DNA of 64,000 bases from positions 54,035-118,034 of the forward strand of contig CALBFA010000101.1 in NCBI GenBank assembly GCA_937888365.1. Direction: 5' to 3'. The stretch is from an uncultured Fidelibacterota bacterium. GTDB lineage: Bacteria; Fidelibacterota; UBA8477; JABMPR01. Under the pieces are notes generated by a model. The model did not search any database. It was not told the origin of the DNA and worked only from the letters and a program-made list of their open reading frames with translations. Of the stretch, positions 420 through 39,329 are shown one piece after another. Positions within the stretch are counted from its first letter, which is position 1, and each line of letters starts with the position of its first letter. The position numbers and the translations under genes were made by a program.

Positions 420-443
420 GATATTGAATATTTATTTTTCTAA

Positions 444-471
444 GGGGCTGTTTTTCAGCCCCTTTTTTTTT
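444..471 (+). terminator. Rho-independent terminator
   Basis: Hairpin GGGGCTG/CAGCCCC (444-450 and 456-462) followed by a T9 run. Confidence 0.8.
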
Positions 472-621
472 AAACTGTCACGATGTTATGCAAACGGAGG
501 TGTAGTGAGTTTTATTTTTAAAACAAGTTTTTTCCCACACAAGTATACACTACTCATCTTCTTAACCTTACAGGTTTCATACATTTTTTCTTTATCAAAC
601 AATTTAAAAAGAGGTTATTAA

Positions 622-1452
622 ATGGATATTGCAACCTTAATCGGTCTTATTGTTGGCGTTGTTTTAGTTGCTTATGGGATGGCTGACCCTTCTACTATGA
701 TGCCCTCAAGCATGTTTTTTAATCCACAGGCATTTGCCATTGTTTTAGGAGGTACACTTGCCGCTACTTTAGTTAACTATCCTATCAAACGGATATTCGG
801 TTTATTTAAAGTCACTGCAAAAGTATTCTTACATCGTCAAAACGATGACCCTCTTTTACTTATTCAAGAGATGTCTGGTTATGCTCAAATTGCTCGTAAA
901 CAGGGCGTCGCTGCACTTGAAGGGAGCATTAGCAGAATTCAAAATGGATATCTGCAACGAGGGCTTGAAAATGCTATTCTTACAAGAGATCCTGCAAAAT
1001 TGCTTGATTTTTTAGACAATGAATTGGATTCCATGATAGAAAGACATCAAAGCGGACAAGAAATATTTTATAATATGGGCAGCTATGCTCCGGCCTTTGG
1101 TCTCCTTGGCACTGTTATGGGCTTGATTTTGATGATGGGAGGCCAATCTGATAATGGGACGGGTATGGCGAGTTTTGCGTCAGATAGTGAGGGAAGTATG
1201 AACATGCTTTTGACAGGAATGGGACGCGCCCTTGTAACTACTTTTTATGGTGTCCTTTTTTCGAACCTATTTTTTATTCCAATTGCTGGAAAATTAAAAA
1301 CTCGAACCGAAGATGAAGTCGCTCTCAACCGCATCATAAGAGCCGGTGTGTTGAGTATTCATGAAAGAGATCACCATTTAGTCTTAGAAGAAAAACTTTT
1401 AACTTTTGTTGATAAACAAACGAGAGAAATGCACCGTATTAACGGTTTATGA
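622..1452 (+). CDS. motA: MotA/PomA-type stator A subunit (MotA/TolQ/ExbB proton-channel family)
   Basis: 276 aa with four predicted TM helices and a long cytoplasmic loop between TM2 and TM3. Conserved prolines sit in TM3 (AP-AFGLLGTV) and TM4 (FIPIAG). Its stop overlaps the next start as ATGA. Confidence 0.7.
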   Translation: MDIATLIGLIVGVVLVAYGMADPSTMMPSSMFFNPQAFAIVLGGTLAATLVNYPIKRIFGLFKVTAKVFLHRQNDDPLLLIQEMSGYAQIARKQGVAALEGSISRIQNGYLQRGLENAILTRDPAKLLDFLDNELDSMIERHQSGQEIFYNMGSYAPAFGLLGTVMGLILMMGGQSDNGTGMASFASDSEGSMNMLLTGMGRALVTTFYGVLFSNLFFIPIAGKLKTRTEDEVALNRIIRAGVLSIHERDHHLVLEEKLLTFVDKQTREMHRINGL

Positions 1453-2120
1453 AAACTGGCCACTCTACAACTTGGATGGTGACTTACGGCTCTTTGCTGA
1501 CAGCCGTTTTAGCTTTTTTCTTGCTACTCGTGCAAAAGGCTGAAAGTGAAGCCGAATCGACGTTTCGTTTAGCTGACAAATTGAAGAGTCAATATTATGT
1601 GGATTTACTCGCCGAAAAAGAACGATTAAATCTGAGTTGGCTGCATATTGAAAACGCGGGGCAGCGCGGTATAAAAATACTTATACCTTCACAAATTGAT
1701 AATCAATCTCTTTTTAAATCAGGAGGCGATCGTATTGAGCCTAAATTTATTCCATTTCTAAGCAATATTTCACGTTTAATCAATGGATTAAATTTAGACA
1801 AAGTTTATGAGATCAATCAAAAGCATATTGCAAAGCTTCGAAAAGTGGACAAAGATCTAAAAGTGAAAATTCGAGTCGAAGGTCATACGGATGCAACGAG
1901 ACTCATGGAAGGATCTGAGTATGAAGACAATTGGGCACTCAGTACAGCACGAGCAAGAAATGTTTTAAATTTGATTCAATCTGATTTGAGCCTGCCATCA
2001 AACTTTTTTAGTCTTTCAGGATATGGTCCATTTCATCCTTTGCGAGATGTATCCAATTTTGATGAAAACCGTCGCGTAGAGATTTATCTCGATGTACAAA
2101 TTGTGGATTATAATTTATGA
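1449..2120 (+). CDS. MotB-like OmpA-domain protein, paralog 1. Lacks the conserved TM aspartate.
   Basis: A single N-terminal TM, WMVTYGSLLTAVLAFFLLL, aligns to the MotB YADFMT segment with Ser in place of the proton-binding Asp. The C-terminal OmpA-like peptidoglycan-binding motif NWALSTARARNV is present. ATGA overlaps couple it to both neighbours. Confidence 0.6.
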   Translation: MKTGHSTTWMVTYGSLLTAVLAFFLLLVQKAESEAESTFRLADKLKSQYYVDLLAEKERLNLSWLHIENAGQRGIKILIPSQIDNQSLFKSGGDRIEPKFIPFLSNISRLINGLNLDKVYEINQKHIAKLRKVDKDLKVKIRVEGHTDATRLMEGSEYEDNWALSTARARNVLNLIQSDLSLPSNFFSLSGYGPFHPLRDVSNFDENRRVEIYLDVQIVDYNL

Positions 2121-2815
2121 ATATGGACAAAAAAAGAGCGCTCTCGGAATTAAGCGTAAAAACGCGATCCATTTGGTTACTTTCATATGGCGATCTCATT
2201 ACCCTTCTTATTACATTTTTTATTATGATGATTTCTTTGAGAGCCGGGCAAATATCTCGCATCCATAAATGGGTTGAGGGTCGAATTGACGAAGCAATGT
2301 CTGAACTTCAAAATGTTGCGAATGAATTGAATTTAAATGAAATCAATATTTCACGAAATTCGAAAGGAATTCGAATTGCTTTAAATGATCCGCGATTGTT
2401 TGAAACAGGTAGTGCTGAACCTCGGACAAATCTTATTTATCAACTTGATGCCCTATCGTCAGGCATTAAATCACTGGAAATATTCCATTTAGAGAAAAGT
2501 AAATACGCCTCACTGATTAACAATCTAAATGCTGATGGCTATGCATGGAACGTTGAAATACGTATTGAGGGTCATACGGACAATATTCCTCTCACAAATA
2601 GTCAAACATATAAAGACAATTGGGAGTTAAGCGCGGCACGTGCTCAAACCGTTATGCGACTTCTTCAAGAAAGTACAAAATTACCCGAACGACAATTTGC
2701 CGTCGCTGGTTTCGGCGAATTTCAGCCGATTGACGTCAATAACACTGGGAAAGGTCGCGAAAATAATCGGCGCGTTGAAGTATATATTTCTGCTTCAATT
2801 ATCGAAGCTCAATAG
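2117..2815 (+). CDS. motB: MotB/OmpA-family stator B subunit, paralog 2. Has the conserved TM Asp.
   Basis: TM segment WLLSYGDLITLLITFF carries Asp at the MotB D32-equivalent position. The OmpA-like motif NWELSAARAQTV is present. Confidence 0.65.
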   Translation: MNMDKKRALSELSVKTRSIWLLSYGDLITLLITFFIMMISLRAGQISRIHKWVEGRIDEAMSELQNVANELNLNEINISRNSKGIRIALNDPRLFETGSAEPRTNLIYQLDALSSGIKSLEIFHLEKSKYASLINNLNADGYAWNVEIRIEGHTDNIPLTNSQTYKDNWELSAARAQTVMRLLQESTKLPERQFAVAGFGEFQPIDVNNTGKGRENNRRVEVYISASIIEAQ

Positions 2816-3707: not shown

Positions 3708-6700
3708 TTGGAACTTTTTTTGATGAAAGGTCATTTTAGAATAGTGAAAATACTTAATATATTCTTCTTCCTTGTAACAATCGGATTTGCGACGGAAATT
3801 CATAATATTTTTGAAAATTCTCATTCCTTTAATTTTTCAATTGATATTCCTGAACCCAGCAAATCTTATCTTGACATAAATACAAATAACGAAATTGTCC
3901 CACATTGGTCAGATGTAAGTTGGGCTGTTTTCAATGATAATCACATATTGCCGTATTTTACAATTCCTATTGTTCTGCCTTCTATTAACGCAGATATTGA
4001 TATTCAATTTGTAATAAAATCAATGGACGATTTTCAATTTCAGGAACCGCACATTTTAGATATCCATAAAGAAAGTTTAGAGCATATTGATCTGAGTTCT
4101 CAAATACAAGTACAAATGGGAAATCGAGGCTACGCGAATAATATTCCCATTGGAACGATTGTAATTATCCCAACAGTGGAGAATAGACAAGCCATACAAT
4201 CTCTCGACATCACAATTGATTTCAAGGGTGTAATGAAAGGCAATAATCAATTATCTTTGCCACCATTCATCAATTCGAACCAAGCGAAAAATTGGGATAT
4301 TGAGACGTTTCATTTTATGTCATCCCTTCACAAAACGACAGATATTCCTGGAAGATGGTTTCGATTTAATGTGACAAATGGCGGCATTTTTAAAATTACG
4401 CCGAATTCATTTCCTTCAGGTACCAATCTGACGGACCCTGGCAGTTGGGAATTATATACACCCTCTTTCCAAGGAAGAGAGATGCCTCTGATTCTCCTCG
4501 ACGATTCTGCTGAACCCGATAATTTGAGCCAAATGAGCATGGATGGCCTCGGTGTAAGTGATGGTGTTTTTTCAGGAAATGACTATTTCCGATTCTATGC
4601 TCGGGGCATCAATGGAGAGATCGAAAATAATTTTCAGACACATTCTTATGCAAACTCTATGACCTACTGGCTCTTTTTACCCGATGACGAAACAACTATT
4701 GGGAATCGCATTCAAAGTATTCAATCTTTAAATATTGTTGCCGACGAAACAATTTCCACAATGACATCAGCGTATTATCATGAGAATGAAATTAATAATA
4801 TCCTGCACTCCGGAAAATCTTGGGTAGGTGAACAATTTAACGGTCCATCAGACAATTTATATTTCTATTTAGATTTACCCGTTGTTACGTCCTCAGGGAC
4901 TTGCACCATTAGCGCAAAATTAAATGGTACACTTGATTATACGACGAGTTATGTACACTATTTTGATGTCATTGTTAACAACATTGACCTTCACGCATCT
5001 CAAAATACACGAAGCAATACGGCGAATATCATGTTGTCTTCAACTGGTAATTTATTTCAAAAGGGTGGTAATACGCTTCAGTTTAAATATCAGTCATCAA
5101 GTTCGGCCGCTGCATATTTAGATTGGTTTAAAATAACTTATCCACGTGAAATCGAGTCCAGTAACGAACCTATATATGGATGGCTCACACTGAATGCTAA
5201 TTCAACTCAACTATCTGCCTTAGCATTATCATCAAACTGGCATTTTTGGGATTTTAATAATTATCTAGATCCTGAAGCACTTGTCTTTACAGGCAATAAT
5301 TTTAAGACTCAAAAACAAGGTAACGTACATTTATTGGGTTTTGCTGATGGGATGGAAGATGCTATTAGTCTCGAACTAGTTGATATCGACTTTAATAGAC
5401 TTCGAAATCCAAGTAATGAAGGCCAATATGTCATTATTTCTCCCGAAACGTTTATAAGTCAAGCAGAACGGCTAGCTGACATCCATGAAAATAAAGTTCG
5501 TTTGGATGAACAACTCAAGTGTTATACAGCCTCAATTTCAGATATCTATAATGAATTTTCTGGAGGCGTTGATGATCCAGGTGCAATTAAATATTTTCTG
5601 AGTTATGCTTTAAGAAACTGGGCAATTAAGCCTGAATACGTTGTTTTACTTGGTGATGCCGATTTTGATTACCGAAATTTGACGGGGCTTTCGCAGTTGC
5701 GAATTCCTACCATTCAAGTTGATGGATTAACTGAAATAAACAGTTATTCATCCGATGATTTTTTTACTCATTTGATTGGAAATGATGTTTTACCCGATAT
5801 TGCCTTAGGAAGAATTCCCGCTAAAAACGCAAGTAAACTTAATGTTTTTCTCGATAAACTAGAGCAATATTGTGTCAATAGCCCCGAGGGTTTGTGGCGC
5901 AATACTATCACCTTAGTTGCAGACGATCCCCTTAGACCAAGAGAGTATTTTGAAAGTTATCACATCGACGATACTGAAGATTTGGCTGATCAATTGCCCA
6001 AATCATTGCAAGTCAATAAAGTTTATTTGACAGAATATCCCGAGGTTCAAGACCCTACCTCACCGTATGTTCTGAAACCAGCCGCTAGAGATGCTTTGCT
6101 CCAACGTATTTATAATGGAACCGCCATCGTTAATTATATGGGACACGGTTCTCCTTGGGTTTGGGCACAGGAAGAAGTCTTTACAGAAAGTGATTTGTCA
6201 AACCTAAGGACTCATGGACAATGGCCACTTTTTTGTGCAGGAACATGTGATTGGGGTAAATATGATGACGTTGCTAGCCAGTCCATGGCTGAACACTTAT
6301 TACTGCTTGAAAATGAAGGTGGCATTGGTGTCATTGCATCAACTCGAAAATCTTTCGGTGGTTCAAACGCAGCATTATTCTCTAAATTCTACACATATTT
6401 ATTCCCCAATAATAATTCCTCTTATTCTATCCCAATTGGAAAAGCCATGCAATTAACAAAAATTGCCAGAAGCAGCGGCGGAGCGAGTCCTAATGATCTA
6501 AAATATGTCATTCTATCGGATCCAGCTCTTCGAATCCCGACGCCAAAATATTCGAGTGACTTCACTCAAATTAACCCCTTGAAACCGTCAGCAATGGAAA
6601 CATTTTCTTATGAGGGACAAGCTCCTAGCGATTTAATGAATGACGGATTTGCTTTGGTAACGGCATTTGATTCTCCAAGGCGCGTTACGCGACATATTGA

Positions 6701-7592
6701 ATGGCAAACCGCGACAGGGTCTTTTGAAAACAATATTTCCTACTATTTACCTGGTAGAAGAATTTTTAGAGGTTCAATCTCTTATACTAATTCGATTTTT
6801 TCAGGACAATTTATTATTCCAAAAGACATCAATTATTCGGGGAATAAAGGTAAAATTAATGTGCAATTTTGGGACGCCGATAAGGCGTCTGGTATTGCAA
6901 CTATTGACACTCTGGAATTTCAAGGAGGCGATAGCACAACACTCAACCAACAAGGTCCTGAAATAATTTTCGTGCAAGGAGATTTGCCTTTAATGCAAGG
7001 TGATGAATTATCTGCAAATGAAGAGTTTTTTATCGAATTAACGGATGAGCAAGGCATCAATTTAACAGGTGCTGCCGGACATGGAATCATCCTTTCGATT
7101 GATGATAATCTTAGCAATTCAACGGATATTACAGAACTTTTTCAATATAATCTTGATGATTCAAAATCAGGAAAAATAAGTCTAATCTTACCTGATATTG
7201 AACCAGGCCGACACAAATTGAGCCTTGAGGCTTGGGATAATCATAATAATCCATCAAATGAAAATATTGAGCTTAATTTTTTCGCTTCAGATAAATTTGT
7301 AGTTTTTGACGTTTATAACTTCCCGAACCCTATGTCTGATGACACTCAATTCACTTTTCGACTTAGTCACTCGTCGGATGTCTTTATTCATATTTTTTCA
7401 CTTTCAGGTCGAAAAATTACTACTCTCGAAGCCGGATATCTCAGTACTGGGTTCCATACAACATATTGGAATGGAGAAGATGATTACGCAAATAAGCTGG
7501 CAAACGGTGTTTATTTATATCAAGTACACGCAGAGTCTGATGCCTTCGAAGAACCCTCGGATGTCATTCAGAAACTCGTGATGAGTCGATAA
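3708..7592 (+). CDS. Peptidase C25 family (gingipain/PorU-like) protein with a T9SS C-terminal sorting domain
   Basis: 1294 aa with an N-terminal signal peptide. The central region has the C25 hallmarks: YVVLLGDADFDYRN, a catalytic His context NYMGHGSPWVW, and a Cys context LFCAGTCDWGKYDD. The C-terminal ~80 aa, FDVYNFPNPMSDD...GVYLYQVHA, is a type A T9SS C-terminal domain. The true start may be the internal Met at 3723. Confidence 0.6.
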   Translation: MELFLMKGHFRIVKILNIFFFLVTIGFATEIHNIFENSHSFNFSIDIPEPSKSYLDINTNNEIVPHWSDVSWAVFNDNHILPYFTIPIVLPSINADIDIQFVIKSMDDFQFQEPHILDIHKESLEHIDLSSQIQVQMGNRGYANNIPIGTIVIIPTVENRQAIQSLDITIDFKGVMKGNNQLSLPPFINSNQAKNWDIETFHFMSSLHKTTDIPGRWFRFNVTNGGIFKITPNSFPSGTNLTDPGSWELYTPSFQGREMPLILLDDSAEPDNLSQMSMDGLGVSDGVFSGNDYFRFYARGINGEIENNFQTHSYANSMTYWLFLPDDETTIGNRIQSIQSLNIVADETISTMTSAYYHENEINNILHSGKSWVGEQFNGPSDNLYFYLDLPVVTSSGTCTISAKLNGTLDYTTSYVHYFDVIVNNIDLHASQNTRSNTANIMLSSTGNLFQKGGNTLQFKYQSSSSAAAYLDWFKITYPREIESSNEPIYGWLTLNANSTQLSALALSSNWHFWDFNNYLDPEALVFTGNNFKTQKQGNVHLLGFADGMEDAISLELVDIDFNRLRNPSNEGQYVIISPETFISQAERLADIHENKVRLDEQLKCYTASISDIYNEFSGGVDDPGAIKYFLSYALRNWAIKPEYVVLLGDADFDYRNLTGLSQLRIPTIQVDGLTEINSYSSDDFFTHLIGNDVLPDIALGRIPAKNASKLNVFLDKLEQYCVNSPEGLWRNTITLVADDPLRPREYFESYHIDDTEDLADQLPKSLQVNKVYLTEYPEVQDPTSPYVLKPAARDALLQRIYNGTAIVNYMGHGSPWVWAQEEVFTESDLSNLRTHGQWPLFCAGTCDWGKYDDVASQSMAEHLLLLENEGGIGVIASTRKSFGGSNAALFSKFYTYLFPNNNSSYSIPIGKAMQLTKIARSSGGASPNDLKYVILSDPALRIPTPKYSSDFTQINPLKPSAMETFSYEGQAPSDLMNDGFALVTAFDSPRRVTRHIEWQTATGSFENNISYYLPGRRIFRGSISYTNSIFSGQFIIPKDINYSGNKGKINVQFWDADKASGIATIDTLEFQGGDSTTLNQQGPEIIFVQGDLPLMQGDELSANEEFFIELTDEQGINLTGAAGHGIILSIDDNLSNSTDITELFQYNLDDSKSGKISLILPDIEPGRHKLSLEAWDNHNNPSNENIELNFFASDKFVVFDVYNFPNPMSDDTQFTFRLSHSSDVFIHIFSLSGRKITTLEAGYLSTGFHTTYWNGEDDYANKLANGVYLYQVHAESDAFEEPSDVIQKLVMSR

Positions 7593-26686: not shown

Positions 26687-27892
26687 TTATAAACCCGATC
26701 TCATTGCTTGCCCCATATAGAAAATGGGCAGATAGGTTATAACAAGAATCAATAAAATTAAGCCACCGACAAAAATAATCATAACGGGCTCAATAATAGA
26801 CGTCATACGGTTTACGATGGCATCAATTTGTTTCGAATAAAAATCGGATGTTTTATGCAATAGGTTATCAATTTCTCCCGTTTCTTCACCGGTGGTAAGA
26901 AGCTGCAACATAATGGAGGGGAAACGTTCCGTAATGCGAAGCGATGCCGATATTGTATAGCCATCTCGAATATATTCCGAAGCTAGTTTCACCGACGCCG
27001 CATATACTTTATTATCCACGATACGCTGTAAAAGCATCATGGACGGGATGACGGGTACACCAGCACCTAAAAGGATTCCCATCGTTTTAGAAAATTTGTT
27101 AAAAATCGTATATTTAAGAAGTGTCCCAAAGACAGGAAAATTAAGTTTAAATGAATCAATAGCATATCCACCTCTTTTCGTGAGGCCAATAAACCACATA
27201 ACAATAAGAAAAAGACCAAAAGCGAGCAGAACACCCAACCAGTTATTTTGAACTAATTCACTTATATCAACAAGTTTTTGGGTGGGGCCCGGCAATTTTG
27301 AACCCAGTTGAGCGTATACATCGGCGAAACTGGGTACAATTTTTATGAGCATTACAAGAATAACGACAATCAAAAATCCCAGAACCAGAAAAGGGTAGGT
27401 TAATGCTGAAACGACCTTTTGGTTCGTATCACTAATGTTTTCCAAATAATTTGCTAATTCATCAAGAATATCCTGGAGACTTCCTGAAACCTCACCGGCT
27501 TTAACCAGTGCGACATATAGCGTCGAAAATATTCCAGGGTGTTTTTCCATGGCGTCCGAAAGCGAATAGCCTTTCCGAATATCATCCGAAATATTTTCAA
27601 GCGCTTTTTTGAATTTGGGATTTTTTTCTTCGATGGAAAGATTGGAAACTGATTTTTCAAGTGTCAAACCTGCTGCAAACATTGTTGCAAGCTGTCGCGT
27701 AAAGAATACCATGACTTTGAGGGGGACTCTTGTCCTCATTTTTACGATGGAGCCTTGCAACTCCTCAATAAAATCGTCTCCCCATTCTTTTTTCTTTTTT
27801 TTCTTTTTCCCGAGGGCAATTTTCGCAAACGCTGCTTCTTTTTCTAAGTCTCGCTTCTGCTCAGCACCCATACTTACTTTTTCAGACATCAA
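26687..27892 (-). CDS. pilC: Type IV pilus inner-membrane platform protein PilC (GspF family)
   Basis: Duplicated GspF domain and three TM segments. The N-terminus contains a KKKKKKK tract encoded by long A-runs. Confidence 0.8.
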   Translation of the reverse strand: MMSEKVSMGAEQKRDLEKEAAFAKIALGKKKKKKKEWGDDFIEELQGSIVKMRTRVPLKVMVFFTRQLATMFAAGLTLEKSVSNLSIEEKNPKFKKALENISDDIRKGYSLSDAMEKHPGIFSTLYVALVKAGEVSGSLQDILDELANYLENISDTNQKVVSALTYPFLVLGFLIVVILVMLIKIVPSFADVYAQLGSKLPGPTQKLVDISELVQNNWLGVLLAFGLFLIVMWFIGLTKRGGYAIDSFKLNFPVFGTLLKYTIFNKFSKTMGILLGAGVPVIPSMMLLQRIVDNKVYAASVKLASEYIRDGYTISASLRITERFPSIMLQLLTTGEETGEIDNLLHKTSDFYSKQIDAIVNRMTSIIEPVMIIFVGGLILLILVITYLPIFYMGQAMRSGL

Positions 27893-29601
27893 AAATCCTC
27901 TACCGTTGAACGCAATATTTCGTCAAAAGTTGTGATGCCAGCAACCAATTTTTGGACACCTGAATCACGCAGTGTTTGCATGCCGTTTTCGATGGCTTTC
28001 TCGCGAATAATTTCTTGGTTTTTATTTTCAAAAACAAGCTTCCGAATGTCTTGGCGCAGCTCAAGTATTTCAAATATACCCGTTCTTCCACGATAGCCCG
28101 TTTGCCTACAATGAATGCAACCCTTACCTTTGTAATAAGTTTTTTTACGATGCTCTTCTGGCATATTAATTCTATCAAAGTCCTCTACCGTAGGTACATA
28201 CTCGGCTTTACAGTGCTTACAAATCGTACGAACAAGTCGCTGAGCCATCACTAAGTTTACGGAAGATCCCACTAAAAATGGTGGAATACCAATATCAATT
28301 AAACGGGTAATAGTCGAAGGTGCATCATTGGCGTGGACCGTTGAGAACACAAGGTGACCTGTTAAAGCAAATTTAATGGCAATATCCGCCGTCTCTTCAT
28401 CTCGAATCTCACCAATAAGCAAAATATCCGGATCTTGACGTAAAATAGCGCGAATCGTAGATCCAAATGTTAAGCCAATTTTTTCTCTCACTTGAACTTG
28501 GTTAATACCACTCAATTGATACTCAACAGGGTCTTCAACCGTCGTTATGTTCGTACCTTCACTCTTTATTTCTTTAAGTGACGCATACAGCGTTGTTGAC
28601 TTTCCTGATCCCGTTGGACCTGAAATAATAATCATCCCATAAGGTTGAGCAATCCATCGTTTAAACGGTATATATTGATGTTTGGGGAATCCTAGTGTCG
28701 TTAAATCCATACTGAAACTGGTTTTATCCAGTAAACGCATAACGATTTTTTCGCCATAAATTGTTGGTAATATGGAAACACGAACATCAATCTCTTTTTC
28801 GCCCATTTTAATACTAAAACGGCCGTCCTGCATTAAACGACGTTCAGCAATATCCATGTTGCTAAGAATCTTTATACGCGTCGTAATTCCGTTTAACGAT
28901 GAAGAAGGTGGGTTCATTACTTTTTGAAGCACGCCGTCAATTCTCAATCGAACTGCAATTTCATGAGGCTGAGGCTCAACGTGAATATCTGTCGCCCGTT
29001 CTTTTATGGCTTCTTGCAGAATAATATTAACGAGTTTTACATAAGGAGCTTCGTCATCAGAGATTGAATCTTGGGTTAAATTGACGAGATCGCCATCGTC
29101 TTCATCACCTACAAAGACTTCCAATTTTGATAAAGCAGCATCCACTTGTCCACTTTGGCGAATTTTTCCATAATGAAATTCGAGAGCGGCTTCAAGTGCG
29201 GATTGGCCCGCGACTAACACTTCGACTTTTAAGCTAGTATTCCCTTCAACAGCGTCAATGGTTGCGAGGTCTTCTGGATCTTCCATAGCGACCATAACCG
29301 TTGTCGCTGTCTTAGCCATGACAAGTACCAAATTTTCCATGGCAAAATCTTCTGACAAGGTCTTGACAATGCTAACATCAACGCGCATCAATTCTTCTTC
29401 GTACACAGGTTTGTGTCCCAATTGAGAAGCAAAGGTTGTGACCAGTTGATCCTCCGTCACGGCTCCCATTTGAACAAGGATTTTACCTAATTTTTCCTTG
29501 GTTGTATTCTGACGTTCCAAAGCCTCATTAAGTTTTGATTCTGTTAGAATATTCTCATGAAGCAGAATATCACCTAGTTTTTGAAATTGTGGATTAAACA
29601 T
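27889..29601 (-). CDS. pilB: Type IV pilus assembly ATPase PilB (GspE family)
   Basis: Walker A SGPTGSGKSTT, an N-terminal T2SSE_N domain, and a C-terminal tetracysteine motif CKHC...CIHC. Confidence 0.85.
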   Translation of the reverse strand: MFNPQFQKLGDILLHENILTESKLNEALERQNTTKEKLGKILVQMGAVTEDQLVTTFASQLGHKPVYEEELMRVDVSIVKTLSEDFAMENLVLVMAKTATTVMVAMEDPEDLATIDAVEGNTSLKVEVLVAGQSALEAALEFHYGKIRQSGQVDAALSKLEVFVGDEDDGDLVNLTQDSISDDEAPYVKLVNIILQEAIKERATDIHVEPQPHEIAVRLRIDGVLQKVMNPPSSSLNGITTRIKILSNMDIAERRLMQDGRFSIKMGEKEIDVRVSILPTIYGEKIVMRLLDKTSFSMDLTTLGFPKHQYIPFKRWIAQPYGMIIISGPTGSGKSTTLYASLKEIKSEGTNITTVEDPVEYQLSGINQVQVREKIGLTFGSTIRAILRQDPDILLIGEIRDEETADIAIKFALTGHLVFSTVHANDAPSTITRLIDIGIPPFLVGSSVNLVMAQRLVRTICKHCKAEYVPTVEDFDRINMPEEHRKKTYYKGKGCIHCRQTGYRGRTGIFEILELRQDIRKLVFENKNQEIIREKAIENGMQTLRDSGVQKLVAGITTFDEILRSTVEDF

Positions 29602-29625
29602 GTATACGTTCTCTTCTCGCTAAGG

Positions 29626-32184
29626 TTAGGGCAGTGTACGAACTAGTTGAATTGAGACTTGGTCACTTGTTGCACCCTGAGGATCTAATAATCTACAAAA
29701 AACCATGGATGTGAAAGGCGTATAAGAAATGATATTACCATCAGCATCTTCAACGGGTTCGCATAAACCCTGATCAAATACACCTATAATTTGAGCGATA
29801 CCATTGTTGTCTGTATATACGATGGGTGCTCCTGTTCCATCAGGATCAAGAGGGTAACCGTCTGCTTCGGACCAAGATTGAACACCGTCTGCAAAGAATA
29901 ATATCCGTCCATTTTTAATGGGATTATTATAAACATCCTGCAAAATTGCAGTAAGTGTCAATTCAAATGGATTGCCAGCTAAGAAATCATAATAAGTTGC
30001 TGAGGGAATAATACCCAGTACGCCAGGATAAAACGGTAAAAGCATGAGACCATCTTCTTCGGCATTTACAACATTGATAATCTCATTACCGTCGCCATCA
30101 AACACTTTTGAAATGACATGAACATTGTCAAATGTATTATCCGAATTCCAGTAAATAGTTGTCCATGCAATACCAGGATAAGAATCATCATTTAAATTGC
30201 CGTTTCCTGTGAAACTCGACCCAATAATATTTCCCACATTGGGTGGATCTAAATACCAATAGACTTGCGTTGAATCTTCAACAGGATTTGAGAATTCATC
30301 CCAAACACGAGCGCCTAATTCCATACGGTAAATTCCGCCACCGATGGGTTCTATTGTACTTTGATCCATATCAGGATAGATATAGGCGGGTGGACCTGCC
30401 GCAATCGTTACTGGAATGGCCGTCGAAGATATGGTTGTTCCGCCTACCGTTATTGATGCCGTAACGCGAACGTTTCCAGGTTGCGTTCCAGCGTTTAGTG
30501 TTGCAACAGCAATACCTTGATTGGTCGTTACGACAATACTGGCTCCACCACCTGTAATATTAGCTCCTGTTGGATAAACGGGTCCTAAGACAAACGTAAC
30601 GAGCGTTGGTTCCGTAACAATTTCACCATTTGCATCGCGAATTTCAGCACGAATTGTTGTCGATTGAAGTCCCCATCCACCCGCTACCACAATCGTATTT
30701 GGGTTCGATGGAAGCATTTGTACATAGGCAGCTTCGCTGAAAGCTTTCACTTGCACGGTAATTGAATCTGTAACGCCACCAATTGTTGCGCGAATCAATG
30801 AATAACCAGATGTATCATTTGCTGTGAAGTTGGCCGTTGCAACTCCAATAGTATTTGTCATGGCTTGTTGAGAAATCACACCAAAGGTAGCAGAAAAGTT
30901 GACCAGATGGCCTTGTTCTACCGTAAAACCATTTGAATCTGTAACAGTGGCACTAATCAATGCTTCAACACTTCCACTTTCCAAATCAGGAATAACGGAA
31001 TAATTCGTCGTCAATTCTATATTATCAGGAGGCGCATTTCCAATGATTGGGTTTTCGGCTAAAATTATAATTGAATGTTGTTTTGTCATGGAACCGTAAA
31101 AAGGATGTTCCACGCGTGCGGTAATAATTGCGATAGTATCTCTATCAATTTGTGAACCTAAGTCAGAAAATATGCTTGACGCGATACCAGATCCATTTGT
31201 AAAAATTCCTGATTGGATGGTACCTAAATTAGCCGAATAAAAAACCTTCATTGTATCAACTGCTTCACCGTTTTCATCACTTAAACGTACCGAAATTTGT
31301 GCTGTCGAAACGCCATTATCTGCATAGATACGATTCGTATTACTAAAAATATTCATTGTCCATGTAAAAGGAGGTAGGAAATTTATCGTCACCGTATCTT
31401 TAAACGCAATTGCCGATACTTTTCCCAGTTGATTAAACGTATAGACCCCAGGATTATTGTGCATTAAGGTAATTATATTAGAGGTTTCGATATAGGCTTC
31501 TACGATAACTTGCCCAAATTCGCCCATATCTGTTGAAAAGACAGATTGACTCACGCCTGCGCCATTGGTCGAATCAACGGACACATTCAAATAACCGTGC
31601 TCAGATCCACTCAATACGCGATAATTAACTCGAACATTTTCAACTGCAACACCGTTGTCATCGCGAACCGTCGATAAAATTTTGCAGCTATAAATACTGT
31701 CGATAGCTGTCATCCTAATGGAAGGGATATGTGGGTTTGTTGATGTATTAAACGCTCCGACCAAATCTTCTAACGGTAAGACATCAATATAAACTGTATC
31801 ACGAACGGTTACTTGTTGAGCATCCGTATAACGAGCCGTTATGCGAATATTTTCTCCCGCGATTCCGTCGTCATCAAAAACTGCATTTGCTCGACCCGCT
31901 GATGTCGTCGTAATATTTGATGCCATTGTCCCTTGTGTCGCAGAAAATACAACCGTCACGCCTGAAATAGGTTCACCTTGATCATTTGTAAGCCGAGCAC
32001 TAAGAGTTGCTACTGTTTTACCGTTATCGGCGTAAATAATTGTATCATTTGCAGTGAGTACCAATTTATAGATACTATTTCCTGAATTATTGGGCGTTCG
32101 TGTATCACAGGCATTCATCATCAGCATTAGAAACATGCTGAGAATTATTAAACCAATTCTTAAAAAATATTTTGTTGTTTTCAT
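29626..32184 (-). CDS. Putative lipoprotein with multiple bacterial Ig-like (Big) repeat domains, embedded in the pilus operon
   Basis: Start assigned to the internal Met at 32184, which has a GGAG Shine-Dalgarno site 7 nt upstream and lies 22 nt after the pilQ stop. The ORF track extends it to 32250. Signal peptide with a lipobox-like LMMNAC. Repeated Ig-like segments follow. Confidence 0.5.
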   Translation of the reverse strand: MKTTKYFLRIGLIILSMFLMLMMNACDTRTPNNSGNSIYKLVLTANDTIIYADNGKTVATLSARLTNDQGEPISGVTVVFSATQGTMASNITTTSAGRANAVFDDDGIAGENIRITARYTDAQQVTVRDTVYIDVLPLEDLVGAFNTSTNPHIPSIRMTAIDSIYSCKILSTVRDDNGVAVENVRVNYRVLSGSEHGYLNVSVDSTNGAGVSQSVFSTDMGEFGQVIVEAYIETSNIITLMHNNPGVYTFNQLGKVSAIAFKDTVTINFLPPFTWTMNIFSNTNRIYADNGVSTAQISVRLSDENGEAVDTMKVFYSANLGTIQSGIFTNGSGIASSIFSDLGSQIDRDTIAIITARVEHPFYGSMTKQHSIIILAENPIIGNAPPDNIELTTNYSVIPDLESGSVEALISATVTDSNGFTVEQGHLVNFSATFGVISQQAMTNTIGVATANFTANDTSGYSLIRATIGGVTDSITVQVKAFSEAAYVQMLPSNPNTIVVAGGWGLQSTTIRAEIRDANGEIVTEPTLVTFVLGPVYPTGANITGGGASIVVTTNQGIAVATLNAGTQPGNVRVTASITVGGTTISSTAIPVTIAAGPPAYIYPDMDQSTIEPIGGGIYRMELGARVWDEFSNPVEDSTQVYWYLDPPNVGNIIGSSFTGNGNLNDDSYPGIAWTTIYWNSDNTFDNVHVISKVFDGDGNEIINVVNAEEDGLMLLPFYPGVLGIIPSATYYDFLAGNPFELTLTAILQDVYNNPIKNGRILFFADGVQSWSEADGYPLDPDGTGAPIVYTDNNGIAQIIGVFDQGLCEPVEDADGNIISYTPFTSMVFCRLLDPQGATSDQVSIQLVRTLP

Positions 32185-32206
32185 TTTATTCTCCAAAAAC
32201 TGATAT

Positions 32207-33661
32207 TTAGTTACCGGTTTTTTCGTCTGTTGTTTCATCGTCCGTATCATCGGACTCTGTTGCTATATAAGTATCCTCAAATTTTTCCATTCTGTCTGTT
32301 CGCTCAATACCAGAATATGCATCACGAATAATATGTGGCGTAATTTCAATAATTAAATCCGTTTTTGAATCGCTAAATGATTGATGCGTAAAAAATTTCC
32401 CGACATAAGGTAGATTCCCAAAGAATGGGAGTTTATTTTCAACACTTTTACGATCGACACCCAGTAGCCCTGCAATGATGATAGACTCGCCATCTCGAAC
32501 ACGAACCGTCGTCTCTGACAGACGTTTTTTTACCCATGGGATATTACGTTCTGGCCCAATAAAATCGTAGATAGAACTAACTTCAGGAATGACTCTTGTC
32601 GTAATATATCCATCCGTATTGACGGTGGGCAAAATGCTTAATTTTATGCCGACTTCCTCGCGTTGAACCTGAACCTGACCGCCAATGCCTCCACTTGAGA
32701 GAATGTAAGGAACGATATCGACCATTGCGATTGATGCAGCTTTACCGTTAATCGTTACGACCTGACTATTCGCTAAAATGTTAGCTTCATTCTTTTTCTG
32801 AAGCAAATCTAAGGTTAAATCAAAAGCGGAAAGTTGACGACTAAAACCTATTTGACCCGTTCCTATTCTTTGGAAGTACATATTTTGTGGAAGCAGTCCA
32901 TTGGGGAGTGGTGAATATTGCTCAATTAGAGAGCCATCACTTTGCATTTGTTGACTCATACCAGGAACAAAACTTCCACCTATTGTGATGTTTGGAGCGG
33001 CATTTTCAGCAATAATTGTGGTGATCTGCGCCAAACGAGCCCAGTCAATACCATACGATTCTTCTCCCGCCATCGTCACTTCAATTAATCGTGCTTCAAG
33101 CTTTATTTGGAGGACTGGGACATCAATCGCTTTTATAACCTCAAGAACTTCAGCAATCTTCTTGGGACTTGTATTGATGAGTAATTTGTTCCCACCGTGA
33201 TGAACTTCAACCTGCTCTGTAATATTAACGAGCAATTCTTTTACTTCTGTGGCATTTGCATACTGTAAAGGTACGACATATGATTTTATACCAATTTCTT
33301 CTTTAAGTTTGGCTGTTTCAGCCACTAAAAAGGAATTACCAACAATTTCATAACTGAGTCCCGCGGCTCTCACCACGAGGTTGACAGCTTGTTCAATTGG
33401 GACTTTGTTTAAATGTATCGAGATTCTATCCTTAATATTGACACCTGGCCCCGTTACAATATTGAAGCCACTTTCTTCAGCAAGGATAGCTAAAACGCTT
33501 GGTAAATGTGCATCTTCGGCACTAATTGAGACAAGACTCGATTTGAGTTTTTCCATATCAGGTTCAGACTCAGTCTCTTCTGCAAAGGCATAAGCCAGTG
33601 TTAACACAAATATAATGATTATTAGTTTGAACAGTTTTTTCATTTTATTCTTCTCCGGCAC
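32207..33661 (-). CDS. pilQ: Type IV pilus secretin PilQ
   Basis: C-terminal secretin domain with VRVRDGESIIIAGL and KLPFFGNLPYVGKFF. N-terminal signal peptide. Confidence 0.85.
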   Translation of the reverse strand: MPEKNKMKKLFKLIIIIFVLTLAYAFAEETESEPDMEKLKSSLVSISAEDAHLPSVLAILAEESGFNIVTGPGVNIKDRISIHLNKVPIEQAVNLVVRAAGLSYEIVGNSFLVAETAKLKEEIGIKSYVVPLQYANATEVKELLVNITEQVEVHHGGNKLLINTSPKKIAEVLEVIKAIDVPVLQIKLEARLIEVTMAGEESYGIDWARLAQITTIIAENAAPNITIGGSFVPGMSQQMQSDGSLIEQYSPLPNGLLPQNMYFQRIGTGQIGFSRQLSAFDLTLDLLQKKNEANILANSQVVTINGKAASIAMVDIVPYILSSGGIGGQVQVQREEVGIKLSILPTVNTDGYITTRVIPEVSSIYDFIGPERNIPWVKKRLSETTVRVRDGESIIIAGLLGVDRKSVENKLPFFGNLPYVGKFFTHQSFSDSKTDLIIEITPHIIRDAYSGIERTDRMEKFEDTYIATESDDTDDETTDEKTGN

Positions 33662-33671
33662 TTCTAATTAC

Positions 33672-34193
33672 TTAGTTCGTATAATTTTCGATTTTAGAGG
33701 GATCCATGGCAAGGCTTTGCACCGGATGAAATTTTTTCTTACCCTCTTTTATGGTCAAAATCCCATCTGGATTTATCATGATGATTTTGTAACCACCTAA
33801 TTTGTCGCCAACTTCGACTCTTCTATGCTCTTTATTGTACTGCACTAAAGCATAACTCTTTTCACCACTAATGATGGATGAAACGCGTATGGAGTTCGCC
33901 CACATAGTGCTTATCATATTTCCGTTTTCGTCTAACATCATCACAACTTTTGTTAATTTCATTGGATCATTTCGCAATGTCATGACATAGTCGTTTCGTT
34001 TTTTTAAACGCGTTTCGAGGGTCTCAATAACAGAAACGAGTTGTTCGTCTGTTCCAATAATTTTAGACTCTGTAAGCTCTTCATATTCAAGTCTCGTCTC
34101 ATGAACAGAGTTTAAAGTAAAACCCTCAACAATAGAGACAATCGTAGCAATCGTAATTGTCAAGTACCAGAAAAAGCGTGCTCTTCTATCCAT
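33672..34193 (-). CDS. PilP-like pilus assembly protein (assigned by position)
   Basis: 173 aa with an N-terminal TM. Lies between pilO and pilQ. Confidence 0.4.
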   Translation of the reverse strand: MDRRARFFWYLTITIATIVSIVEGFTLNSVHETRLEYEELTESKIIGTDEQLVSVIETLETRLKKRNDYVMTLRNDPMKLTKVVMMLDENGNMISTMWANSIRVSSIISGEKSYALVQYNKEHRRVEVGDKLGGYKIIMINPDGILTIKEGKKKFHPVQSLAMDPSKIENYTN

Positions 34194-34761
34194 TTGCGCC
34201 TCTTTTCAAGCTGGATTTTATAAGGGTCATCGTTGAAAGTCTCATGTCCACGGTTTGTTTTTCGAGAGCAGCTTCTGATTTTACAGATTTAAGTCGTTCA
34301 ATTCCGTTCTTCATCACGAACTCATTAATTTTAACAATACGAGGTAATTTTTCGAGTGCGACCATTAAGTCACCAAATTGTTTATATGTGCACCGAATCG
34401 TTAAATCATAAGGTGTTTCTTTGATATTGCCTTTTTTTATCCCAAAACGAGGACGTATGTTTTTAATATCAATTTCAAGTCTCTCCGTTGTTTCCGTAAG
34501 CCAATTGAGAAAAGGCATGGATGCATCATCGGCTAAGGAATCAGTCGCTGAAAGCGCGAGGTTTTGCTCAAAAAGGAAATAAACATTTTCGAGTTTAGAG
34601 TCGAGAATCTGTGCTGTAATGAGTTTCTCATTTAGTTTTTCAATTTCTTTATCAAGAAAACGAATATCTGATGGCTTTTCGGAAAAGCTGTAGGTATAAA
34701 CGCCATAAAAGCCTGCGGAGAGTAATAAAACTACAATCGCTAATAATTGGAGACGTCTCAT
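34186..34761 (-). CDS. pilO: Type IV pilus assembly protein PilO-like
   Basis: N-terminal TM then a coiled-coil periplasmic domain. Position after pilN. Confidence 0.55.
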   Translation of the reverse strand: MRRLQLLAIVVLLLSAGFYGVYTYSFSEKPSDIRFLDKEIEKLNEKLITAQILDSKLENVYFLFEQNLALSATDSLADDASMPFLNWLTETTERLEIDIKNIRPRFGIKKGNIKETPYDLTIRCTYKQFGDLMVALEKLPRIVKINEFVMKNGIERLKSVKSEAALEKQTVDMRLSTMTLIKSSLKRGANG

Positions 34762-35363
34762 GATTTTTTCCTTAGAGGTGGTACAATAAATTTCAGTTTT
34801 TTTAATTCTCCCCGTATTTCAAAAGAAATCAAATCTTGTTCTAAAACTGTCATTTGCATGGATTGATTAAAAATAATTTTATCGAAGTCCTTCATAAATT
34901 GAGCATCATTCTCAAGTCTAGCAATAAATTCATTAATAACATCGAATTCCCGCTCATCGTTGTAGATACGTGAGATGCCCGTCATAATTAAATAATTGTC
35001 TTTAAAAACAACATTCGTTAAGGCCATATCATGCGGCATAAGTCGACCAATATTTTCGAGCTTTTCAGCCCAAAGAACACGTTCCGATTCAAGTTTTGCA
35101 AGTGCGAATATATCATCTCGCGACAAATCTTTTCCGGATGCTTTTAATTTGTCAAGATCCGACGTCATTTTTTCAATTTGAGATTCTTTTTGAGCAACCA
35201 AATCTGCCATTTTCTGATCTTCTTGATACATAAAAAGCAATGTTATAATTAAGACAAGAGATGTAACAGCAAAGACTGCCCAACGACCTCTTTCTCGTAT
35301 GGTTTCTAATCGAGCCGCTTTGCCAGCAGCCTGATTTAAGTTAATTTTAATGGCGTTTATCAT
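34758..35363 (-). CDS. pilN: Type IV pilus assembly protein PilN-like
   Basis: Short cytoplasmic N-terminus, one TM, then a coiled coil. Position after pilM. Confidence 0.55.
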   Translation of the reverse strand: MINAIKINLNQAAGKAARLETIRERGRWAVFAVTSLVLIITLLFMYQEDQKMADLVAQKESQIEKMTSDLDKLKASGKDLSRDDIFALAKLESERVLWAEKLENIGRLMPHDMALTNVVFKDNYLIMTGISRIYNDEREFDVINEFIARLENDAQFMKDFDKIIFNQSMQMTVLEQDLISFEIRGELKKLKFIVPPLRKKS

Positions 35364-35396
35364 ACTAATTCCAATCCTATTCCGTTCATTCTAAAA

Positions 35397-36458
35397 CTAT
35401 TCCAATTCGCCACGAATTGCCAAACCAACAGCAATGGCATATTTTGATGCATCTTCCATAACATCTTTCATGTCATGATGAAGCTGAGCAATAGGATTAT
35501 ATATTTCTGTATGGATATTTAACTTCTCAGTAATAAACTCAACGAGACCATTTGTTCGAGCGCCTCCACCTGTTAGAAATAACTTATGAAAATTACTCTC
35601 GCTGCTTTCTTTAATATAAAAACGTAGGGAACGACGAATTTCATCAACAAGCGAATCATAAATAGTATGTTCAGCTACAGCGATAGAAAAACTACCTTCA
35701 GCACCACTCGCAACTCCTGCTTGACTCACGTTGAATTCAGAGGATTTTTTTAAATTCTCAGCTTCGTTGTACGAAATATTTCGTTTGTCCACGAGTTCTT
35801 TTGTCATGTGATGTCCACCAATTTGGATATCACGCGTAAAAAATGGTGCGACTCTTCCCCACACAACAAGTGTTGACGTCGTTGAACCAATATTCAAAAA
35901 CACATGAGCCCCGTCTTCAGGCAATCCATGTTCCACAAGATACGAATTTGCAATAGCGACAGCGTCTGCATCTACAATTCCTTGAGGGAAGCCCATCTGT
36001 TTTACATTTTCTAGATGTCGATTAAGATTTTTCTGCGTTGAAGCAACGAGTAAAATATTAACCATTTCAGGATTTTGTGGATCTTCACCTAAAATCTGGA
36101 AATCAATCGTTACATCAGAGCCATCCATCGGAATATGTTTTCGAGCTTCCAGCTGAAGAGATTCTTTCATTTCGTCTTCTTCTTCCGTATTCATGAGTTT
36201 TACCTGACGAACATTGCTGATCTGATTATTAAGATTCGTGACTAATTTCTTCAAGCTTTTGGGTTTAATTTTCATACGATCCACAAGTCTTAAAATAGCT
36301 GCACTGGATTGCTCAAATTTTATTTTCTCGGGGTCGTATTCTTTGTCAGGGCTAACGAGAGGTTCCGAACCATATCCAAGAAGAGCATAGCCCTTGGGTG
36401 TTTTTTGGATATGCACAATTTTAACTTCATAGCGCCCAATATCTAAGGCAACACTCAT
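35397..36458 (-). CDS. pilM: Type IV pilus assembly protein PilM (actin-like ATPase fold)
   Basis: PilM/FtsA-like fold with LDIG and GGG motifs. Confidence 0.75.
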   Translation of the reverse strand: MSVALDIGRYEVKIVHIQKTPKGYALLGYGSEPLVSPDKEYDPEKIKFEQSSAAILRLVDRMKIKPKSLKKLVTNLNNQISNVRQVKLMNTEEEDEMKESLQLEARKHIPMDGSDVTIDFQILGEDPQNPEMVNILLVASTQKNLNRHLENVKQMGFPQGIVDADAVAIANSYLVEHGLPEDGAHVFLNIGSTTSTLVVWGRVAPFFTRDIQIGGHHMTKELVDKRNISYNEAENLKKSSEFNVSQAGVASGAEGSFSIAVAEHTIYDSLVDEIRRSLRFYIKESSESNFHKLFLTGGGARTNGLVEFITEKLNIHTEIYNPIAQLHHDMKDVMEDASKYAIAVGLAIRGELE

Positions 36459-36461
36459 TCT

Positions 36462-38252: not shown

Positions 38253-38854
38253 CTTCCATACTCCTTCCCAACAAAAAAACGATCTCTAATTTTTAGGATT
38301 TCAAAACCCTCTTCACCGTCAGGATATTTGGTAGAGACCTTAAGATTTAGCTCAATTAGCCACACGGATTTTCTGAATTTTTTATATAAACTTGCACTAA
38401 ATCCATGATCTTCGAGACCATCTAAATTTCTGCAAACGAATTTATCGATGGTTACTTTTCGTTGGTCACCGACTCTGTATGCACCACCATTTGGAAATTT
38501 AACATGTGGATCCATCGGTCGGTCTTCAATAAAAAATCCTTCATTTTCAAGTGCATAAATATTAATTAAACCGTTATTCTTTTGATTAACACTCAATCTA
38601 TCGTAACCATTCCAGTTATCAACGCTAACGTTTTCAGCAGAACGAACATATTCTTTAATTGTTTTGACGGAGTAATAACCATAATTACGTAGTTCATTCA
38701 TCACCCAATCATTTTGATACGATCCTGTACTGGCGATTACAGTAATTCCAAGACCGGTTAAAATAATGCCTGTAATGAGTGAAGCGATTGAAAGCTCAAT
38801 AAGCGTCAAACCCTTATTATCGTAGACAATCTTTTTTAATCGATTGATCATCAT
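38249..38854 (-). CDS. Type IV minor pilin (prepilin-type N-terminal cleavage/methylation domain)
   Basis: KG-LTLIELSIASLITGIILTGL: a G/L-T-L-I-E prepilin motif with Glu5. Confidence 0.7.
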   Translation of the reverse strand: MMINRLKKIVYDNKGLTLIELSIASLITGIILTGLGITVIASTGSYQNDWVMNELRNYGYYSVKTIKEYVRSAENVSVDNWNGYDRLSVNQKNNGLINIYALENEGFFIEDRPMDPHVKFPNGGAYRVGDQRKVTIDKFVCRNLDGLEDHGFSASLYKKFRKSVWLIELNLKVSTKYPDGEEGFEILKIRDRFFVGKEYGS

Positions 38855-39327: not shown

Positions 39328-39329
39328 AT

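Follow-up and report, generated by a model that had tools for sequence, protein, structure and literature searches.

An operon in a stretch of 64,000 nucleotides from an uncultured Fidelibacterota bacterium (the window, by which the whole stretch is meant) encodes a stator A subunit, MotA, followed by two different MotB paralogs, here named B1 and B2. B2 carries the ion-coupling aspartate of the MotB transmembrane helix (TM), B1 has a serine at this site, and comparison with related trios indicates that the one carboxylate which the operon always guarantees is that of B2. Purifying selection acts on Asp-less B1 as strongly as on B2. The interpretation that we favor, and to which we give slightly less than an even chance, is that the three proteins would form a heteromeric MotA5-B1-B2 stator with one coupling Asp. 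The initial annotation of this DNA had put forward two hypotheses, that B1 and B2 form a heterodimer or that one B subunit does not conduct, and both were apt, since B1 is functional as judged from its ratio of nonsynonymous to synonymous substitution rates (dN/dS, 0.045-0.17).

The two B subunits and their aspartate site

Both motB paralogs encode proteins with the Pfam domains MotB_plug (2.1e-07 for B1 and 1.4e-08 for B2, both over the gathering score) and OmpA (PF00691). B2 displays a canonical MotB TM (WLLSYGDLITLLITFFIMMI) with the motif W20-LLSYG-D26-LIT, where Asp26 is found at the expected place. The corresponding motif of B1 is W9-MVTYG-S15-LLT, with Ser15 (codon TCT, 1491-1493) at the MotB Asp position, which we take to be homologous to Asp32 of E. 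coli MotB and Asp24 of B. subtilis MotB. Three independent alignments agree on this placement, namely MAFFT with canonical MotBs, HMMER against B. subtilis MotB 6YSL (pairing WLVPYADILT with WMVTYGSLLT of B1) and the Pfam MotB_plug model, and they confirm the first reading of Ser in TYGSLLT and Asp in SYGDLIT. The sequences and alignment were also inspected for a carboxylate that could compensate for the lost Asp, and neither the B1 TM (W9-V28) nor any of the four TMs of MotA contains an Asp or Glu. Glu32, conserved in B1, was rejected as a compensating acid: it lies 17 residues past Ser15, at the periplasmic/plug end, as in ordinary MotBs.

The cytoplasmic tail of B1 is 8 residues long, as initially described; the open reading frame (ORF) cannot be extended upstream and a 93%-identical B1 homolog (P0001) begins at the same Met, the tails of other orthologs measuring ~15-25 residues. 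B1 and B2 are 28% identical overall and their TMs differ. Both have, ahead of the GHTD motif, ~25 inserted residues that are missing from ordinary MotBs, and are therefore paralogs within one MotB subfamily, which substantiates the paralogy proposed at the outset. The OmpA-like domain of B1 keeps the GHTD, NWxLSxxRA and NRRVE peptidoglycan-binding motifs, and the invariance of these motifs in the B-subunit alignments predicts binding to peptidoglycan. In the AlphaFold model of B1 (pLDDT 90.2), TM and plug form one long helix that is followed by an OmpA-like domain, with the periplasmic domains of Helicobacter pylori MotB, B. subtilis MotS and Salmonella MotB as best structural matches and that of PomB also among the matches. 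NCBIfam MotD/MotB models score B2 at up to 134 bits, under the cut-off; overall, the trio proteins are nearest to the flagellar MotA/PomA/MotP and MotB/MotD/MotS models and far under all equivalog thresholds. B2 presents every MotB feature that was examined, and B1 departs from them only at the defining TM Asp.

Conservation of the trio and history of the B1 site

The genome scan covered one genome per GTDB species; B1 relatives were found at 58 loci, of which 56 are complete. The motA-motB-motB triplet recurs in these 56 species-level genomes always in the order MotA-B1-B2, and no locus was found where one B gene had been lost alone. The complete loci comprise 44 of Marinimicrobia/Fidelibacterota type and 12 from gammaproteobacteria of the Thiomicrospirales (Hydrogenovibrio, Thiomicrorhabdus, including T. 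arctica DSM 13458, and Piscirickettsiaceae), and cluster look-ups add T. indica and Sulfurivirga caldicuralii to these hosts. About 100 B1 relatives were retrieved at 90% clustering, nearly all named Marinimicrobia, Neomarinimicrobiota or Fidelibacterota, which places the window in this phylum, and an exhaustive profile search of 1.8 billion representatives yielded ~20 B1-type clusters at 50% identity, 17 of the 18 readable ones being devoid of the Asp. The ATGA coupling initially reported for the operon was found at both junctions, at 1449-1452 (motA/B1) and 2117-2120 (B1/B2), together with the reported ORF coordinates, and start-stop overlaps of B1 and B2 are also seen in the gene calls of three other loci (L001, L003 and L005).

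The states of the Asp site were counted in 60 non-redundant trios. The B2 site is Asp in all of them, Gly25, Asp26 and Thr29 of B2 being invariant, and the B1 site is occupied by Ser (27 trios), Asp (20), Ala (nine) or Gly (four). The loss of Asp claimed for paralog 1 is thus real in the window and not fixed in the family, 20 of the 60 orthologs, including a sister marine clade, having an Asp. Pairwise dN/dS of Asp-less B1 ranges from 0.045 to 0.17, against 0.03 to 0.16 for B2, at dS of 0.6-2. In the B1 TM, W9, T18, L21, A22, F23 and F24 are each kept in at least 58 of the 60 orthologs, and the peptidoglycan-binding residues G145, H146, D148, N161, R168 and N207-E211 are invariant. From this low dN/dS and these invariant TM and wall-binding residues, B1 is therefore regarded as a working protein which does not need the carboxylate. 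The opposite view, that B1 is a decaying duplicate or pseudogene in an ordinary motAB operon, is an extremely improbable explanation, suggested by the loss of a residue regarded as universally essential; it is ruled out by the intact ORF in 56 of 56 loci, the dN/dS values at dS of 0.7-2 for B1, the occurrence in two phyla and the high-confidence fold.

Trees were built by neighbour joining (distance) only, the B1 tree being rooted with B2, and the tree of MotA plus B2 is congruent with that of B1. Asp occupies the site in the deepest Marinimicrobia pair of the B1 tree (L062/L063); members of the gammaproteobacterial clade carry Ala, Gly or Ser there, and most Marinimicrobia clades have Ser encoded by TCN codons. 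A large marine clade with Asp (GAY) has the window (TCT) and L009 (Ala, GCC) as successive sister branches, and three species inside it have Ser encoded by AGY, another codon family. Parsimony requires three changes if regain of Asp is allowed (a loss, S-to-A-to-D and a second loss) and ~8 independent losses otherwise. We therefore hypothesize that Asp was apparently regained at the B1 site through S-to-A-to-D; under either history, the site is labile in B1 only. Such a regain fits with B1 occupying a canonical B position that lines an intact ion path.

These observations bear on the possibility that B1 works outside the MotA ring as an accessory, either a MotY/FliL-like scaffold or a peptidoglycan clamp, beside an ordinary MotA5(B2)2 stator. 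Loss of Asp would be expected once a MotB copy leaves the channel, and the OmpA domain has been kept. We nonetheless consider this explanation distinctly improbable: the MotB signature (W, LAFF and a T three residues after the Asp site) is kept at 97-100% in the B1 TM, which would be hard to explain in a simple anchor; this TM also matches Pfam MotB_plug, and Asp reappears at precisely this site in one clade.

Several further observations concern the origin of the trio. The pattern of divergence suggests one ancient transfer between Marinimicrobia and Thiomicrospirales. Five records of the GTDB collection labelled “uncultured Lentisphaeria bacterium” (L009, L012, L014, L018 and L036) bear a Marinimicrobia-type trio, and several of them show the Marinimicrobia-type PpiD-trio-PorU-Maf-RodZ-dcw synteny; the Lentisphaeria labels are probably wrong. 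Two loci have an additional motA-motB pair directly upstream of the trio (L022:6155-7695 and L025:6765-8305), whose MotA is 46% identical to the trio MotA and whose MotB has the Asp and the same periplasmic insertion. It is possible that this pair pictures the ancestral one, from which the trio would have arisen by duplication of motB. Finally, an unrelated and independent MotA-MotB-MotB trio was found in a metagenome-assembled genome (“bacterium isolate SKS1.bin104”, L085:813-3025), in an order opposite to that of the window family, the first B having Asp (VYSDLIT) and the second Gly (PYIGVMT), which suggests that the pairing of B subunits with one Asp arose more than once and speaks in favor of B1 and B2 working as a pair.

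Proposed assembly of the stator

The A subunit had been annotated as a canonical protein of MotA/PomA type with TM3 and TM4 prolines, and it is well described as such. It matches PF01618 (MotA_ExbB) at 7.8e-24 and has P157 in TM3 (YAPAFG) and P220 in TM4 (FIPIAG), both within near-invariant blocks of the 60 orthologs and presumably the counterparts of E. coli P173 and P222. R92 and E100 are the equivalents of E. coli R90 and E98, the FliG-contact pair, with the same 8-residue spacing; E100 is invariant among the orthologs, which have R, K or Q in place of R92. Over its full length, MotA can be aligned with the MotA of Clostridium sporogenes (8UCS/6YSF, E = 7e-37), and also with Paenibacillus MotA1 (9LU9), B. 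subtilis MotA (6YSL) and Vibrio PomA (8BRI), the full-length matches to solved stators ranging overall from 1e-30 to 1e-37. NCBIfam MotA/PomA/MotP models give 147-176 bits, all under their equivalog cut-offs, including the best one (NF005997, 175.9 bits for a cut-off of 340). A family-specific insertion of ~15 residues is present in the periplasmic TM3-TM4 loop (residues ~175-195, window ~1144-1206), with a length kept in Marinimicrobia and Thiomicrospirales copies, and is missing from the solved MotA/PomA structures; it is located where the plug helices of the B subunits would dock. In the scheme of Puente-Lelievre et al. 2025 (PMC12505986), flagellar-type stators form the FIT class (FIT/TGI4) and Tol/Exb-type ones the GIT class. 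By its sequence, the trio MotA falls within the flagellar FIT, PomA-like type, not the Tol/Exb/GldL type.

The operon would accordingly encode a self-contained rotary stator of the flagellar PomA/MotA-MotB type, driven by ions and anchored to peptidoglycan, whose central B-dimer position would be filled by two different, obligately co-inherited paralogs. B2 would provide the ion-binding Asp and B1 would take the second B position with no Asp needed, giving in the window a MotA5-B1-B2 complex with a single coupling Asp (B2 Asp26) and both B subunits on the cell wall. This unit might push a FliG-type rotor through R92 and E100 of MotA, which would probably belong to a non-canonical FliF-like/FliG module encoded elsewhere in Marinimicrobia and to the polar flagellum in Thiomicrospirales. 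We infer the heteromeric assembly and the 5:2 stoichiometry from co-inheritance and asymmetric constraint. Strict co-inheritance, overlapping genes, equal constraint and the split between an invariant and a dispensable Asp argue that B1 and B2 act together and not as alternatives. Moreover, channels made of a B1 homodimer would die on loss of the Asp if they were the working form, yet B1 persisted through the radiation of the phylum, which also speaks for a heteromer.

The most serious competing explanation, which we nevertheless hold to be unlikely, is that one MotA serves two alternative homodimeric stators, a working MotA5(B2)2 and, in Asp-less lineages, a non-conducting MotA5(B1)2 that would act as a regulator (brake, place-holder or rotor competitor) or as a static cell-wall anchor. 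It has a precedent in Aquifex, where each of two MotB products works with one MotA, B1 keeps all the features for entering the MotA ring and binding peptidoglycan, and the Asp-bearing B1 (20 of 60) could make a second active stator. However, alternative stator sets are usually gained or lost independently, unlike these B genes, which are never apart in 56 genomes. A purely inhibitory unit is also a less economical explanation given its phylum-wide conservation, including in streamlined marine lineages, at a dN/dS as low as that of B2, and with Asp apparently regained, what had been a brake would become a motor.

Several points weigh against the heteromeric MotA5-B1-B2 stator as well. The heterodimer is a proposal drawn from sequence comparison, and the trees are neighbour-joining ones. 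In the accepted 5:2 model two Asp residues alternate, and E. coli MotB mutated at Asp32 does not function and has a dominant-negative effect; on mechanistic grounds, a motor with one Asp is therefore hypothetical. In the third of orthologs where B1 has Asp, two alternative homodimeric stators are possible. The link to FliG is circumstantial, with no FliG in the window and an Arg position that is not strictly conserved, and the adjacency of PorU in several Marinimicrobia clades points to another output.

Known systems provide partial counterparts for this arrangement. The motA-motB-motB layout has a precedent: a motA-motB1-motB2 operon is known in the flagellated Aquifex aeolicus (Takekawa et al. 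2015, PMC4525482). The TMs of its two MotBs are nearly identical and both carry the Asp, and in chimeras either MotB can work with MotA on its own, whereas B1 has lost the Asp here. Aquifex and the trio have in common one motA followed by two motB in one operon, a PomA-like MotA with the Arg/Glu pair and OmpA-like B subunits; they differ by the divergent TMs of the trio B subunits, 28% identical overall, and by the one B without Asp. With the solved MotA5B2 and PomA5B2 complexes (6YSF/8UCS, 6YSL and 8BRI) the trio shares the TM3 and TM4 prolines and the succession of MotB TM, plug and OmpA-like domain. It differs from these flagellar stators by its scores under equivalog cut-offs, the MotA loop insertion, the ~25-residue B insertions with short linkers, the presence of two different B genes and the lack of flagellar gene context.

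The AglR-AglQ-AglS gliding motor of Myxococcus xanthus, which combines one A-type and two B-type paralogs thought to form one motor (PMC9120999), is of TolQ/TolR type and belongs to the GIT class (PMC12505986). It resembles the trio by the association of one A subunit with two different B paralogs, in a non-flagellar use of a 5:2-type engine, and differs from it by its TolQ/TolR type and by the essential proton-binding site of AglQ. AglQ and AglS are not known to have an OmpA domain. Membership of the trio in the TolQR/ExbBD/AglRQS (GIT) group, which is marked by an A subunit that has three TMs or is condensed and by TolR/ExbD-type B subunits devoid of OmpA, was rejected, the only Exb match being TIGR02805 at 16 bits and both B subunits having OmpA. 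In TolQ-TolR-TolA and ExbB-ExbD-TonB, an A5B2-type engine also houses a TM partner without coupling Asp, so that a helix devoid of Asp can work together with motors of this kind; TolA and TonB, however, are no paralogs of B subunits, are not known to take the place of a B chain and have different periplasmic domains. The Zorya ZorAB unit resembles the trio as a MotAB-derived, peptidoglycan-anchored 5:2 unit outside the flagellum, and the B subunits match ZorB models. The trio differs in being chromosomal, vertically inherited and phylum-wide. Assignment to Zorya was rejected: MotA matches the ZorA model with 14 bits over 90 residues, has no long cytoplasmic tail and is not accompanied by ZorC/D/E genes, the neighbors of the trio being SDR (short-chain dehydrogenase) and PorU genes and not ZorC/D or ZorE/F/G.

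A single motA with two motB (Aquifex) and one A with two B paralogs (AglRQS) are therefore already known, and the parts of the trio are ordinary members of the MotA/MotB family. In an imperfect literature search, by which absence is weakly supported, we found no description of a MotB paralog that lacks the Asp, is conserved under selection and is tied to a partner with Asp, of the trio phylum-wide in Marinimicrobia or in Thiomicrospirales, or of the Marinimicrobia FliG cluster presented below. According to the current model of MotAB, PomAB, ExbBD and GldLM, the two B carboxylates bind the ion in turn as the A pentamer rotates. By contrast with this two-site model, the Asp of one B chain of the trio is fixed and that of the other has given way to Ser, Ala or Gly and has apparently come back, while purifying selection is equal on the two chains. 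If both chains are part of one complex, they would constitute a natural experiment on whether one coupling site suffices and would reveal the share of the second site in torque, speed or ion economy, with clade-matched Asp-plus and Asp-minus B1 versions available for comparison. The presence of the trio in cultivable, flagellated Thiomicrorhabdus, Hydrogenovibrio and Sulfurivirga makes it genetically accessible. Marinimicrobia are among the most abundant deep-ocean phyla and are regarded as non-motile; the occurrence of a flagellar-type stator throughout this group leaves a part of their envelope biology unexplained.

Possible rotor partner and genomic surroundings

The window contains no detectable flagellar gene, as had first been stated: none was found when the ORFs of 150 aa or more in the 64 kb were scanned with Pfam, the murE-ftsA part of the dcw (division and cell wall) block being inferred and unscanned, and tblastn with Marinimicrobia FliF-like and FliG proteins gave no match. 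In none of the 56 related genomes does the operon belong to a standard flagellar regulon. To our knowledge, Marinimicrobia have no known flagella. The further suggestion that the operon drives something other than a flagellum is nevertheless not established: MotA is of flagellar type with the Arg/Glu pair, the same trio is found in polar-flagellated Hydrogenovibrio and Thiomicrorhabdus, and many Marinimicrobia encode FliG and a FliF-like protein beside another motAB. Hydrogenovibrio thermophilus is motile by a polar flagellum (PMC5733100), and the only cultured member of the Marinimicrobia/Fidelibacterota phylum is non-motile (PMC11652737).

The separate Marinimicrobia cluster comprises genes for a hypothetical protein, three TPR (tetratricopeptide repeat)/CpoB(YbgF)-like proteins, MotA (264 aa), MotB (~229 aa, with its Asp), a FliF-like protein of 386-525 aa, a FliG of 310 aa and, as a rule, one more TPR protein. 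In the FliF-like protein only the FliF C-terminal domain is detectable, with no NCBIfam match, and FliG scores 140 bits for a cut-off of 227. No export-apparatus, rod, hook or filament genes were seen within 10 kb of any copy of this cluster, which has the appearance of a rotor-stator module reduced to a minimum; its distance to the trio is 7 kb in L003/L040. A six-sequence profile of its FliG retrieved ~65 clusters, many named Marinimicrobia. The idea that FliG is rare in the phylum, raised by a single-sequence search with 12 relatives, was rejected as a sensitivity artefact in comparison with this profile. Taken together, the flagellar type of MotA, its Arg/Glu pair and the FliG cluster of many Marinimicrobia designate a FliG-type rotor as the likeliest partner. 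The trio would thus most likely engage such a rotor, on sequence grounds, and in Marinimicrobia this may perhaps not be a conventional flagellum. A more specific proposal, that a single-Asp MotA5-B1-B2 drives a non-flagellar rotor (the minimal FliF-like/FliG/TPR module or a structure linked to T9SS, the secretion system of type IX), appears rather unlikely; if true, it would mean that a 5:2 motor can run on one ion-binding site and that a flagellar rotor-stator pair was co-opted as a stand-alone machine.

The gene context of the trio in the window, made of PpiD, PorU, Maf, a RodZ-like gene and the dcw cluster, is one argument for a non-flagellar envelope motor whose output in Marinimicrobia would be T9SS/cell-surface processing (PorU) or an envelope or division function, in the manner of Tol-Pal or GldLM. 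In the window and the marine clade alike, PorU directly follows the trio and is encoded on the same strand, an adjacency that does not imply membership in one system. PorU-like genes are also near the trio in seven other loci (L008, L010, L019, L020, L022, L025 and L038), where they are divergent, convergent or 2.5-8.6 kb off, and the non-motility of the sole cultured member of the phylum (PMC11652737) goes in the same direction. We consider this output quite unlikely. MotA is of FIT type with FliG-contact residues and not of Tol/Exb/GldL type, several Marinimicrobia clades have no PorU within 10 kb, and the weak PorU matches (23-34%) may be other C25/C-terminal-domain proteins. The gammaproteobacterial loci have no PorU-like neighbor either. 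In these Thiomicrospirales loci (L050-L061), the trio is always located between genes for a gmhB-like haloacid dehalogenase (HAD) phosphatase and a plsC-like acyltransferase on one side, adjoined by glyQS, and udg/parE on the other, a context of housekeeping genes that is uninformative on function. Hydrogenovibrio has a PilZ gene and a conventional motAB pair within ~8 kb after the trio.

Coordinates of the features are gathered in Table 1. The terminator of the upstream gene is predicted to be strong and would set the 5' boundary of the stator transcription unit, and Pfam identifies a convergent SDR gene 3' of the trio. With a terminator upstream, ATGA joins and a convergent gene downstream, the trio therefore constitutes its own transcription unit. 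A scan of the leader for sigma-70 promoters, which excludes FCB-group promoters, gave no convincing match. A listed ORF of 65 aa (424..621) overlaps the terminator and the leader without support and is probably spurious.

Table 1. Features of the window and positions of the separate FliG cluster in other loci
Feature	Position	Strand	Description	Basis
motA-type gene	622..1452	+	276 aa, 4 TM	ORF and Pfam
B1 (motB paralog)	1449..2120	+	223 aa	ORF and Pfam MotB_plug and OmpA
B2 (motB paralog)	2117..2815	+	232 aa	ORF and Pfam MotB_plug and OmpA
Codon GAT, B2 Asp26	2192-2194	+	sole carboxylate for ion coupling among the operon products	
Intrinsic terminator of the upstream PpiD/SurA-like gene	442..474 / 442-464	+	9-bp stem, 6 GC pairs, then T-run	
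Leader, non-coding	475..621	+	Shine-Dalgarno-like AAAGAGG ~7 nt before motA ATG	
PorU, type IX secretion sortase	3708..7592	+	669 bits for a cut-off of 420	NCBIfam NF033707
Type IV pilus/type II secretion system-like cluster	26687-40388	-	PilM, PilO-like, secretin, large Big_1/invasin-like protein	
Separate FliG cluster	L006:3120-10936			
Separate FliG cluster	L007:2959-10963			
Separate FliG cluster	L088:3255-12158			
Separate FliG cluster	L090:3117-12156			
Separate FliG cluster	L091:3167-10933			

Beyond the stator operon and its neighbors, the pilus-like cluster of the window also encodes a PilB-like ATPase with MshEN, PilC and a PilT-like ATPase, together with several ORFs without Pfam match. 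At least two proteins of the window, a GLUG-repeat protein and a DUF5074-like protein (41184-43004 and 55095-56402), have T9SS C-terminal sorting domains.

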